The position numbers and the translations under genes are program-made. This document shows, in pieces, positions 49,881 through 54,146 of a DNA stretch of 64,000 nt (position 1 is the stretch's first letter; each line of letters starts with the position of its first letter). The notes under the pieces are model-generated. The model was not told the DNA's origin, made no database searches, and saw only the letters and a program-made list of their open reading frames with translations. Source of the stretch: Shigella phage Z31; the sequence record MN655999; one strand, written 5' to 3'.

Positions 49881-50252
49881 TTACTTTTCAGTATTCTTTG
49901 TGTTCTTTTCAGTAATAGCTTGGAGGGCTGATACTGATTGAGCCAGATTGTTCACACTATCAGAGAATTTATCAAGAGTCTTAGTAAGTTTTGCATTCTC
50001 ACCCTTAACATTCTCTAGCTGGACTTTCTGGTTCTCCATCCCTAGCTGGAGCAGTCTCATGTCAGACTGTAAATCACGAATAGCTGAGTAATTACTTTTT
50101 GAATAACTGTCTAGCTGCTGTAATTTTGTTGTGACAGACACTTCTTGTTTACCACTTGAAACCTGCATCGTGGTAAATGTCCCAATAACACTAAAAATAC
50201 CAACTACAATTGCACCAATATTATTTTTAAAAGCTTCCTCCAGCCACTTCAT
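49881..50252 (-). CDS. membrane-anchored coiled-coil protein (123 aa)
   Basis: N-terminal TM IGAIVVGIFSVIGTF. Confidence 0.45.
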   Translation of the reverse strand: MKWLEEAFKNNIGAIVVGIFSVIGTFTTMQVSSGKQEVSVTTKLQQLDSYSKSNYSAIRDLQSDMRLLQLGMENQKVQLENVKGENAKLTKTLDKFSDSVNNLAQSVSALQAITEKNTKNTEK

Positions 50253-50446
50253 TTATTCTCCCCCTTAAAAGCTTTTTCTAAGTTATCTACGAACTCATCA
50301 TCAATAGGTGTGTCTGTTTTACTCGCAAGGTATCTTGCAAGCCTAAAGAACACTTTCTCAATCATGTATTCACTTAGAAGGGATAAAATGAGTTTCCAGA
50401 AGAAGCTACCTAGATTTTTTAGAAGAATTGCTAGGATTGTAGGCAT
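50249..50446 (-). CDS. hypothetical protein (65 aa)
   Basis: ORF track. Confidence 0.4.
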   Translation of the reverse strand: MPTILAILLKNLGSFFWKLILSLLSEYMIEKVFFRLARYLASKTDTPIDDEFVDNLEKAFKGENK

Positions 50447-50524: not shown

Positions 50525-52912
50525 TTAAGCAGTTCTTACCCAAGCCATTAACTTATAGAACTGGTTAGTAACACTAAATGCTGAACCAGAACCTGTACTA
50601 CCAGTGTTACCACTAACTGTGTGGCTGTGAGCACCAATGCCTACAGAGTGGGAATGGTCACCAGCACCGCTTGTAGTACCAGACCATGTGTGTGTATGGT
50701 TACCAGTTGTGTTAGTGTTAGGGAACTTGTTATCTCTTCTATCAAGCCAGTCAAGCGTTCTAGGGAGGCTGTTACCAACTGTTGTATATCCGTACAAAGC
50801 ATCACCACCATTAACCAATAGCAGACCTAAGTGGTGAGCGTGGTTACCAGCAGCACTTGTTGTACCACTTACAGAGTGAGTATGACCACCAGTACTATTA
50901 GTGCCCTTCGTACCATAATCAAAAGATGAAGTGGTAGCAGAGAAACTGTGAGTGTGTGATGGTAAGTTACCAACAGCTAAAGTTACAGAGTCTGAACCAC
51001 CAGTTGTAGCAACATCTGAACCGTTTGCTGCTGCGATTCTGATAGTTCTACCAACACCATTGTTCAGGTACGTCCAAGTTAACCCAGGCAACGCTGTGTT
51101 AGGGTTAACATTACTGTTAAACCACGTTACAATACCAACTGGGTAGATTTTATTAAGGTCTGTAGAGTCACTTACTGCCTGTGCAATCTTCTGGTCAGTC
51201 TCAGCTTTAGTATATGCACCAATATCTGAAGGGGTTGGTTTAAATGCCGTTGAATACAACTGCGCCTCTCCAACATATGCTCCATCTGGCCCATAAGCAT
51301 ATGTGAAGACATCAAGACTTCTAGACCCATAGGTAAAAGCAATACCTCTGGCATGAGCAATACCAGCAGAATGTGCGACATGGATGGCTAAATCTTTCAG
51401 ACCCTGCTCAATACCATTGTTTCTTACAAACCCTGAATAATCTTTATTGAATGATGATGGGTCATCCAATCTATTAGTTGTCCTTGTCATTAAAGGTTGG
51501 TTTAACAGTTTTGTTTTTAAGAAATATCTAGCATCTAAGTTAGACCAATCAGAAGGTTGTACTTGACCAGTAATGGTTAGATTCTTATTAGCCTTAATCG
51601 CTGAGGGCATCAGAGTAATTTGAGTCCCAGAGTAGCTGTTGTTTAATGCCACATCAGTAGAATTTGTGCCACCCACACCTACCCACCACCTAGATACATT
51701 CTGGGTATCAACACCACGGATATATTGTGGCTGTCCCTGTGTTAAGTTCCTCAATACTAGACCTTCATTGTTAGATACAATAGTCTGCACATTTGTAAAA
51801 GTGTTTGCCACATTAATCTTAGCAAGACTACTCAAAGTAGCTGCTGGAATATATCTAGAGTCAATGTTAGTCCAATCAGAAGGTTGAACTTGACCAACAA
51901 CCCTAAGCTGCTTGTTAACTTCAACATAACCATCATCAAGTCTAAGATTAGAGCCATACTTATAGTTGTGGATTAATACAGCAGGTGTATTATCACCATT
52001 ACCTACATACCACTTACCAGAGCCATCACTACTTTCACCTTTAATGTACAGTGCGCCATTTGCTACAGTATTTTTTAACCTTAAGGCTCCGCTATTCGTC
52101 AAAATTGATAAAGTCTGGTTAAATGTGTTCACGCCACTAAAAGTATTATCACCAGCTAACTGTGCAAATCTCTGATTAGCAACTGTCTGAGTAAAGTATC
52201 TAGCATCTAAGTTAGCAAAACTTGAAGGCTGAACTTGACCAGCAATTTGAAGAGTTCTGTTGACTGACACCAAATTTTCTAAAATAGCAATTGAAACATC
52301 AGTTTTTACATTCTTCAATACAAGGTTGTTTGTACCCTTATTATCATTACCTAGATACCACCTATTAGTACCGTCTGTATCTTGACCACGAATATATAGC
52401 GGCATCCCTTGTGTAGTATTCTTAATAACAAAGGCTTCATTATCAGAGAGGATAGTTTGAGTACCTCTAAATGTGTTATTTACAGCTAGTCTTGAGTATC
52501 TTGCATCATTCTCTTCATTAGTCCTCATTCCAAGTTCATTAGGACTTGGTTTATTCAGAGTATGGTAAACAGTTGCTGACCTTGAAGCATCTGCAATAGT
52601 TAATCTAAGACCATTTGCGTTAATTTTAAAAGTCTTTAAAACATCTCCAATAGTAATCTCAGCAGAACCTGTTGGGTCAAATACTGGTTTACCACCATAA
52701 AGTAACTTAACAATCCCTAATTCTCCCGTCATAGTACTACCAACAATCTGGACAAATCTTTCTAGTTTAAAAGATGCTAAGAAATCTTGATAGGTCATTC
52801 GACGGTCTTCATCACCTAGCATTTCAGGTCTCTTTTTAACTCTGACATGAAGAAGGTCATCTGAACGGATTGTGTCGATTGAGTTTAATTCACTCAACTT
52901 GTAATCTGCCAT
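50525..52912 (-). CDS. long tail fibre with three tandem ~113-aa repeats and His-x-His C-terminal tip
   Basis: Repeats ending QVQPS(S/D)(F/W)xN(L/I)D(A/S)RY; C-terminal [22 protein letters not shown]; ends WVRTA. Confidence 0.75.
51518..52525 (-). repeat. three tandem ~340-bp (about 113-aa) repeats inside the long tail-fibre gene
   Basis: Protein-level repeats at about aa 130-240, 241-355, 356-465. Confidence 0.5.
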
Positions 52913-52958: not shown

Positions 52959-54146
52959 TTAAGCTGTTCTCTGCCATACATACAGTACGAAGGATGGCTG
53001 CTCAATGTTGAAAGCTTGTCCACCACCAACACTATTCGTGTTTCCACTATGCGTATGCTCAGAAGAAGAAACTGTCACAGTACCATTGTGTGTATGTGAG
53101 CCAATACCAACTGTGTGGCTGTGAGCACCAATACCCACCGTATGGTTGTGGTTACCAGTTGTGTTAGTGGTAACACTGAAAGAGTGGGTGTGCGCACCAG
53201 CGACTTCACAGACAGCATCTGCTGAGTACCATGATTGGTCATTCCTTGTAGACCAAACCATTGCAGGTCTTTCCGATAGACCACCACCTGCTTCATAGGT
53301 CAATCTGTGGTTGTGAGCACCAGCAGCACTTGTTGACCCACTGCCAACGTGATTATGGTTACCAGTTGTGTTAGTGGTCTTTGTTCCATAGTCAAAAGAG
53401 TTGGTAGTCTTAGTTCCATAATCAAAAGCTGAAATTGAAACAGTTGCATTATGAGTGTGACCGCCACCACTAAGAGACACAGAATGTGAGTGTTGAGGCA
53501 TGTTATTAACTGACAAAGTGACAGTTGAAGCACCAAATACAGAACCTGCTGGCCTTGTATCAGAGTCATAGCCAACCAATGCCCTACCTTTTGAAACTAA
53601 CTCCCAAGTACCTCCACAAATTAAGTATGTAGAAGGGTTTGCAGAGTTCATAGAAAGATGGATAGTACCTACTGGATAAGAAGCCTGAACAGCCTTGTAC
53701 AAGTTATTTACTGCTCTTGCTGTAGCATACTTATCTGCATCTTCGTTATACAGATTAGATGTTGTCCAGTTCTGGACATTACTTAAACCAACCTGTGCCT
53801 TAGTTGTATTGTGTGGGTTACTCTTGTCCTTAATATGTTGCTGAACAAGGTTATTAACCTCTTCTGAAGACATAATCTGTAGATTTGCTCTTGCCTCAGC
53901 TACATTAACAATATCTGATAAGTTATTTGCAGCAACTAACTGAAGAGCATTAATAACATTATCTAAACCAATTTGTGTTTTAGTAACACCATGAGGGTTA
54001 TTTTTTAGGCTTGAGTGTGGAGCAAGTAATTGCTCAAGAGTACATCTCTTATCCTCAATACCCTGCTTAAGATGGAAGATATCACTAAGGTCAATTGGTA
54101 AGGCTGCTTGAGGCAAGGCACTAATTTGAATTTCACCTACTGCCAT
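52959..54146 (-). CDS. tail fibre with His-x-His repeats; C-terminal tip shared with the long fibre
   Basis: [25 protein letters not shown]; ends VWQRTA. Confidence 0.75.
   Translation of the reverse strand: MAVGEIQISALPQAALPIDLSDIFHLKQGIEDKRCTLEQLLAPHSSLKNNPHGVTKTQIGLDNVINALQLVAANNLSDIVNVAEARANLQIMSSEEVNNLVQQHIKDKSNPHNTTKAQVGLSNVQNWTTSNLYNEDADKYATARAVNNLYKAVQASYPVGTIHLSMNSANPSTYLICGGTWELVSKGRALVGYDSDTRPAGSVFGASTVTLSVNNMPQHSHSVSLSGGGHTHNATVSISAFDYGTKTTNSFDYGTKTTNTTGNHNHVGSGSTSAAGAHNHRLTYEAGGGLSERPAMVWSTRNDQSWYSADAVCEVAGAHTHSFSVTTNTTGNHNHTVGIGAHSHTVGIGSHTHNGTVTVSSSEHTHSGNTNSVGGGQAFNIEQPSFVLYVWQRTA

Follow-up and report, generated by a model that had tools for sequence, protein, structure and literature searches.

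Rod-domain repeats and mosaic cores in the long tail fibre of Shigella phage Z31

The long tail fibre gene and its three repeats

We analysed a stretch of 64,000 nucleotides of DNA from Shigella phage Z31 (sequence record MN655999), referred to below as the window, and focused on its minus-strand open reading frame (ORF) at positions 50525-52912, stop codon included, which encodes a protein of 795 residues. PHROG 4277 ('tail fiber protein') matches this protein end to end (residues 1-795 against profile positions 1-780 of 780, E=0), and Felixounavirus tail fibre genes are 82-92% identical to its gene at the nucleotide level. At least 80% of the protein is covered in 176 phage records, and the closest relative over the whole gene is ECML-1, with 85% protein identity. 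The neighbourhood has the same gene order as in Felix O1, JN01, Moogle and KPS64: a Baseplate_J-like wedge protein (489 residues), a wedge protein of 287 residues, a 100-residue protein, a 395-residue fibre and the 795-residue fibre, after which come a 65-residue ORF, a holin and, on the other strand, a thymidylate synthase. On the profile match, nucleotide similarity and synteny, the gene is, as far as sequence can tell, a Felixounavirus long tail fibre (LTF), orthologous to Felix O1 ORF184. The lengths of the window proteins (489, 287, 100 and 395 residues) are close to those of the Bas63 wedge proteins (489 and 285 residues) and of Sf14 gp52 (391 residues), and from gene order and protein lengths we infer that the LTF gene is also orthologous to Bas63 gp27 and Sf14 gp53. 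The LTF of Bas63 is a homotrimer of 630 Å attached to the LTF platform, seen by electron cryo-microscopy (cryo-EM; Sci Adv 2025, PMC12609058), and Sf14 gp53, with 792 residues, also measures 630 Å and contains T7 gp17-like domains (Commun Biol 2025, PMC11821841).

The first-pass annotation had proposed three tandem repeats of about 113 residues in the shaft of a long tail fibre, at 51518-52525 (residues 130-465 of the LTF), each ending in QVQPS(S/D)(F/W)xN(L/I)D(A/S)RY. This box is found exactly three times in the protein, at residues 226-239 (52196-52237, minus strand), 341-354 (51851-51892, minus) and 450-463 (51524-51565, minus), and a six-frame scan found the QVQPS..RY motif nowhere else in the 64-kb window. 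The assignment of all three boxes is based on the motif match and on conservation across orthologues, to which the first box adds short helical turns predicted in an AlphaFold2 model. Cutting after each ...RY gives three tandem units, as proposed, with lengths of 100, 115 and 109 residues instead of a uniform 113. Unit 1 comprises residues 140-239 (52196-52495, minus; residues 138-239 by a hidden Markov model (HMM) of the unit), unit 2 residues 240-354 (51851-52195, minus), with a long linker of 19 residues, and unit 3 residues 355-463 (51524-51850, minus), with a linker of 18 residues; the unit HMM gives the same limits for units 2 and 3. As anticipated for a fibre shaft, they lie in the rod, between an N-terminal baseplate-binding part and a gp37-like collar, needle and tip.

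The periodicity expected from a self-alignment is highly significant. The units are 37-43% identical to each other over 94-100 residues (BLASTP, E 1e-23 to 3e-32), and profile-profile comparison using the orthologues gives probabilities of 99.9-100% and E-values of 1e-36 to 1e-44 (hhalign). Twenty-four columns are invariant across the three units, among them N-T-F towards the start and G-Q-V-Q-P-S (the GQVQPS box) towards the end. These results confirm the three-unit repeat, far beyond chance. At the nucleotide level, Tandem Repeats Finder reported no array whose period was about 330 nucleotides, codon-aligned units are 52-56% identical, and the longest exact word common to two units is 12-19 nucleotides. 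The most similar DNA between units is the 46-50 nucleotides encoding the box, with 75-87% identity. The repeat is visible at the protein level only.

Scanned singly, each unit exceeded the gathering threshold (21.7 bits) of PF20744 (gp37_trimer, 'Tail fibre protein gp37 trimerization region'), with 68.8, 70.3 and 92.2 bits for units 1, 2 and 3 over model positions 2-81 of 95, and the whole LTF scored 226.5 bits in three stretches. Against solved structures, a profile of the three units found the C-terminal fragment of T7 gp17 (4A0T, E=3.9e-6) and residues 373-438 of the full-length gp17 in 7BOZ (E=2.2e-5; both by hmmsearch), and the whole LTF matched gp17 with E=0.0023 (phmmer). By these comparisons, the units are homologous to the pyramid domain of T7 gp17 (4A0T, 4A0U; residues ~371-447). 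In T7 gp17 the pyramid domain is likewise followed by an ...LDAY... segment. The T7 protein has a single pyramid copy directly before its globular tip, whereas the Z31 LTF has three copies in the middle of the rod, a further domain and a gp37-type needle.

At the level of fold, a likeness to T7 gp17 is suggested. In an AlphaFold2 monomer model of residues 125-475 (mean predicted local distance difference test score 69.5, predicted template modelling score 0.39), each unit has five to seven beta-strands, with short helices at each box. Foldseek against the PDB ranked 4A0U and 4A0T first, with probability 1.0, an E-value of only 1e-3 and template modelling scores (TM-scores) of 0.22-0.38 for the monomer model, followed by the T4 gp34 structures 5NXF, 5NXH and 4UXE (probability 0.66-0.89). 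We attribute the low TM-scores to the comparison of a flexible three-domain monomer with single-domain chains. PF21446 and PF21560, the T4 gp34 families, had no match in the LTF, and T4 gp34 matches these two families, not PF20744. The T4 gp34 rod resembles the LTF in having repeated beta-domains separated by triple-helix-and-turn connectors, a similarity stated by the Bas63 authors (PMC12609058), and this likeness is architectural only.

The rod extends beyond the three units on both sides. The N-terminal part (residues 1-139; 52496-52912, minus), which comprises the baseplate-binding region and the first rod domain, is 88-100% identical across Felixounavirus and ends in a connector-like NEENDARY; its baseplate-binding role is taken from the Bas63 paper (PMC12609058). 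The fifth rod domain (residues 464-575; 51188-51523, minus) ends in a 19-residue connector, gives a weak match to PF12604 (gp37_C) and is 26-96% identical to its orthologues, independently of its neighbours. The collar, HxH needle and receptor-binding tip follow (residues 576-795 and stop codon; 50525-51187, minus). This part resembles the T4 gp37 tip: residues 651-775 match 2XGF (T4 gp37) with E=6e-22 (phmmer), and there are six HxH motifs, at 653, 677, 691, 739, 753 and 762. We considered the flanking rod segments (residues 55-139 and 464-575) as diverged copies of the unit and rejected this, as hhalign found no similarity to the units in them; all that the two segments share with each other by hhalign is a KP(S/T)PxxxG connector motif, which in the first lies within residues 113-138.

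Cryo-EM of Bas63 and Sf14 described beta-domain repeats with "triple alpha-helix and turn" connectors and counted five beta-domains by structure (PMC12609058, PMC11821841). The three units are the middle three of these five structurally defined rod domains, and the QVQPS..RY box corresponds to the connector; only three repeats are detectable by sequence, compared with five beta-domains by structure, because the flanks show no similarity to the unit. Rod repeats of the PF20744 type have thus been described before and are an ordinary feature of tail fibres. The Ounavirinae LTFs Bas63 gp27, Sf14 gp53 and Felix O1 ORF184 occupy the same gene position, preceded in the gene order by wedge 2 (489 residues), wedge 1, the LTF platform (100 residues) and the short tail fibre (395 residues). 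They have similar lengths (782-849 residues), carry three PF20744 units at the same residues and end in the same kind of collar, HxH needle and tip. What sets the window apart is solely its combination of cassette versions along the rod, to which we now turn.

Mosaic variation of the rod domains

Each unit would consist of a beta-strand core of ~80 residues and the conserved box QVQPSDWxNLDARY. We compared the Z31 protein segment by segment with 12 orthologues, and grouped the cores of 11 Felixounavirus genomes into classes by clustering at 70% identity. For the cores of units 1-3, the fifth domain and the tip, identity was either about 26-52% or about 73-99%, each segment behaving independently (window 51188-52495). 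ECML-1, for instance, has nearly identical copies of the unit 3 core and the tip (99% each), and 87%, 29% and 69% identity in the unit 1 core, the unit 2 core and the fifth domain. Another combination is seen in CRP22, which is 99% identical in the tip, 88% in the fifth domain and 82% in the unit 2 core, with 44% and 33% in the cores of units 1 and 3. NBEco004 shares 99% of the unit 3 core and 96% of the fifth domain, and falls to 33%, 35% and 50% in the unit 1 core, the unit 2 core and the tip. Finally, values for ASO1B were 87% (unit 1 core), 29% (unit 2 core), 74% (unit 3 core), 26% (fifth domain) and 92% (tip).

Within the genus, the connector boxes are 80-100% identical while the cores vary; at connector box 1 this range adjoins a core of 33-87% identity. 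Breakpoints fall on the QVQPS..RY and linker boxes: nucleotide identity of 90-100% suddenly gives way to 30-60% at a box or beside it. The clustering gave at least four core classes for unit 1, five for unit 2 and three for unit 3, and almost no pairs of unit 1 cores had an identity between 50% and 70%. Two unit 1 classes and two unit 2 classes are present in all four combinations (CRP22, Tf, VpaE1 and NBEco004), and therefore recombination or repeated replacement is required. One unit 1 class is common to CRP22, LF82P2, Tf and, from a different genus (Mooglevirus), the Citrobacter phage Moogle. Besides, the unit 1 core of the window has its nearest counterparts in units 3 and 5 of P0032, a five-unit fibre from a metagenomic contig described below (58-63% amino-acid and 69-71% nucleotide identity). 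Hence, a cassette class is not bound to its position.

As a pattern, then, the main variation among sequenced relatives is the replacement of cores by deeply divergent versions, and the exchange of these cassettes is well supported. The authors of the Bas63 paper had noted an unexpected variability of repeats 2-5 and left its cause open (PMC12609058). In the searchable literature we found no explicit description of an independent assortment of rod cassettes, which is not proof that none exists.

Copy number of the units and neighbouring genes

The first-pass annotation had suggested length variation by gain or loss of repeats, and a comparison of repeat number among related phages. A tblastn search with unit 3 returned 755 places in 260 phage records, from which we sampled 60 rows evenly down the ranking. 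Exactly three unit places were found in 57 of the 60 sampled records, and more than three in none. Of the three exceptions, one was a single-copy fibre of a T4-like Aeromonas phage, another a short fragment in a record named for a Campylobacter phage, and the last a Shigella phage fibre gene broken into several coding sequences (CDSs). By extension, about 250 sequenced Ounavirinae records appear to have three units. The detailed alignment comprised 13 orthologues of Felixounavirus and Mooglevirus; by the unit HMM, all of them carry three units at practically identical residues, and the differences in their length (782-849 residues) are located C-terminal of the repeats. An extra unit in the longer orthologues (JN01, 849 residues; Moogle, 843 residues) was thereby ruled out. 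According to the Bas63 paper, the variability of these repeats does not come from variable repeat numbers within the genus (PMC12609058). A word-indexed search for homologues of the repeat region yielded hardly anything but partial proteins of <600 residues, of little use for counting units, and the counts were made on the phage records and on representative proteins instead.

Across genera, the units broadly cluster by position, with unit 2 in one clade and the Felixounavirus unit 3 in another; on average, two units are 50% identical if they share a position and 38% if they do not. The clustering is not clean: unit 1 is split, and the units of Moogle and KPS64 are scattered. The positional grouping across genera indicates that the triplication predates the radiation of the subfamily. 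Frequent unequal crossing-over is unlikely because the units share too little DNA identity. The high nucleotide identity between units and the differences in copy number among close relatives that mark variable-number tandem repeats were both absent here (52-56% identity, exact words of 12-19 nucleotides, no array in Tandem Repeats Finder). We conclude that the triplication is ancient, older than the split between Felixounavirus and Mooglevirus, and that the array is not actively length-variable.

Variation in length was found at a much greater distance. When 1.84 billion representative proteins were searched exhaustively with a profile and the best matches (n=142) recounted with the unit HMM, 112 proteins had one copy, 24 had two and four had three; a single protein, P0033, had four copies and another, P0032, had five. 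P0032 has 1015 residues and lies on a 77-kb metagenomic contig (L016:8001-11048), and P0033, with 931 residues, lies on an 87-kb metagenomic contig (L017:7911-10706). The latter had been called as 901 residues, but its frame is open for 30 codons upstream (L017:7911-8000) and begins MAEYNLSQLNTTTEV..., which matches the conserved N-terminus of the family, so that the gene call starts 30 codons too late. Both contigs are Ounavirinae-like and share the gene order of the window: tape measure, baseplate genes, short tail fibre (STF), LTF, an ORF of 63-65 residues, holin, thymidylate synthase and dihydrofolate reductase. The two proteins are <50% identical to any sequenced phage fibre, and their added units carry the linker of the unit 3 type (I/L-x-A-x-x-x-x-N-L-A-K...), as expected from reiteration of unit 3. 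The expected gain and loss of repeats is therefore not seen among sequenced relatives, which keep three units, and unit gain has happened, but rarely, between deeply diverged lineages. We also considered that fibre length could co-vary with tail length and discarded this, since the tape measure has 742 residues in the window, 743 with the five-unit and 728 with the four-unit fibre; as its length is unchanged, fibre length is not tied to tail length.

Some of the records met in these searches deserve a comment of their own. In the T4-like Aeromonas phage 31.2 (L007:857-5116), a fibre of 1419 residues has a single copy of the domain at residues ~1034-1137 (hhalign probability 97.6%), and therefore the module also occurs singly in distal fibres of Straboviridae. 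The broken gene is that of Shigella phage vB_SflM_004 (L006, MK295205.1), whose LTF region is split in the annotation into five short 'tail fiber protein' CDSs, and this looks like the result of assembly frameshift errors, not like a real difference. GU169904.1, filed as Staphylococcus phage SA1, has a full-length match to the Felixounavirus-type LTF with 58% identity, and MG065668.1, filed as Campylobacter phage A126, has a short fragment of it; the host names suggest that both records are contaminated or mislabelled. Enterobacteria phage KhF1 (KT184313.1, L014:1697-1706) carries a 10-bp 'cos' misc_feature in the middle of its LTF gene, as do KhF2, KhF3 and XTG1, an implausible position for a packaging site.

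Next to the LTF gene in the window, the 395-residue fibre is the STF (52959-54146, minus). It has the same kind of tip as the LTF, without PF20744 units, and the Bas63 paper sets the STF apart from the LTF by the beta-domain repeats of the latter (PMC12609058). At 53370-53428 (minus), the STF gene contains a tandem duplication of 30 nucleotides (2.0 copies, 86% match), which encodes (A/S)FDYGTKTTN twice, before the HxH needle; the LTF and T4 gp37 have the FDYGTK motif once. The duplication recalls the small duplications reported in T4 gp37. On the other side of the LTF gene, the hydrophobic 65-residue ORF (50249-50446, minus) lies between this gene and the holin, whose start it overlaps by 4 nucleotides. 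Its equivalents of 63-65 residues on the contigs of P0032 and P0033 (L016 and L017) carry PF26925 (Phage_PM2_Gpl), and the ORF probably belongs to the lysis cassette. An ORF of 82 residues on the opposite strand inside the fibre gene (51639-51887, plus) had no support and was disregarded.

Origin and meaning of the rod variation

We regard it as highly probable that the units, in the LTF of a Felix O1-like myophage, are three copies of a trimeric rod module of the PF20744/T7 gp17 pyramid type, which act as spacers and whose history combines an ancient triplication, replacement of cores and a rare gain of units. In the homotrimer, the box would link its module to the following one as a short connector of the 'triple alpha-helix and turn' type. 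The modules may work as rigid spacers that set the length of the fibre and place the gp37-like tip away from the baseplate. Taking the LTF of 630 Å, with five beta-domains, and the STF of 430 Å, with none, each beta-domain would contribute ~40 Å, estimated as (630-430)/5. Cores would be replaced by homologous recombination in the conserved connector and linker boxes, between co-infecting relatives, while misaligned recombination between boxes at different positions would occasionally add units and give rise to four- and five-unit fibres.

Exchange of this kind has a parallel in the T-even phages. Their distal fibres are reportedly mosaics in which recombination at conserved motifs swaps adhesin segments, as Tetart et al. 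are said to have described (J Mol Biol 1996, 1998). The mosaic fibre genes of T-even phages and the LTF gene of the window are alike in that conserved short boxes flank divergent segments that assort independently. In T-even phages the exchanged segments lie in the receptor-binding tip of gp37, whereas in the LTF they are rod domains far from the tip.

Several points weigh against this reading of the rod. The spacer role is deduced, and the Bas63 authors would not expect cores this variable in a pure spacer (PMC12609058). Recombination in the boxes is likewise read from mosaic patterns in 11 genomes. The TM-scores of the Foldseek matches are low (0.2-0.4), and the interdigitation of the trimer and the helical connector are suggested by a monomer model of medium confidence and by published low-resolution density fitted with AlphaFold models. 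The rod regions of T4 gp34, gp36 and gp37 show no sequence similarity to the units by unit HMM or hhalign. Lastly, the four- and five-unit genes stem from metagenome assemblies, in which each is represented by one or two independent contigs.

One could argue that fibre proteins are compositionally biased, and that repeats in a Gly/Asn/Thr-rich sequence, with flanks (residues 55-139 and 464-575) devoid of significant similarity to the units, result from chance or compositional resemblance. This is practically out of the question, as it is refuted by the BLASTP E-values over ~100 residues, the hhalign probabilities, the three separate matches above the Pfam threshold and the 24 invariant columns. 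It also seems very improbable to us that the rod is an actively length-variable array, in which frequent gain and loss of units by unequal recombination would make fibre length differ among related phages. Such an array would account for the four- and five-unit fibres found in two uncultured relatives whose gene order is identical, and the boxes, as the most similar DNA between units, could mediate a rare unequal exchange. However, the roughly 250 Ounavirinae with three units, among which no sampled record has more, the same boundaries in 13 genes of two genera, and the low identity between units, with a longest common word of 19 nucleotides, all speak against it, as does the constant repeat number reported within the genus. 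The divergence of the four- and five-unit proteins from all sequenced phage fibres points, moreover, to events between deeply separated lineages. For the sequenced relatives, the idea of an active array is largely refuted.

More weight, though still well short of even, can be given to the proposal that the cores form a second layer of specificity, binding host glycans side-on or being recognised by defence systems, with diversifying selection keeping the different versions. The core classes are discrete (about 30% against >70% identity) and assort independently, in genomes with roughly 90% identity elsewhere, one unit 1 class crosses genera (Moogle with CRP22, LF82P2 and Tf), and the Bas63 authors list host recognition and escape from defence among the possible reasons for the variability (PMC12609058). 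Nevertheless, the same pattern could come about if interchangeable modules were exchanged neutrally and hitch-hiked with a selected tip, and the known receptor determinants of such fibres are in the C-terminal tip. We extend, tentatively and with a similar measure of doubt, the exchange of cores to the rod as a whole, which would then be a combinatorial array of cassettes: ancient core versions would be swapped between phages, genera and positions via the boxes, the boxes would occasionally add units (from three to four to five), and the resulting diversity would perhaps be selected.

For annotation, the outcome is routine, since a Felixounavirus LTF with three PF20744 rod domains has already been described structurally. 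It does correct the expectation of variable repeat number: the fibres of sequenced relatives differ by the exchange of whole rod-domain versions at the connector boxes. The shuffling of cassettes, whose functional meaning is speculative, and the four- and five-copy variants are a modest addition. For phage engineering, the boxes offer natural points at which to splice fibre chimeras, and the four- and five-unit fibres indicate that the length of a fibre can change without a change in the length of the tape measure. The mosaic pattern is relevant, too, to the strong variability of rod domains, for which the Bas63 authors left the reason open. If selection keeps the diversity of the cores, the rod domains would not be inert spacers, and would form a second determinant, so far unrecognised, of how the phage interacts with its host or escapes a defence system.

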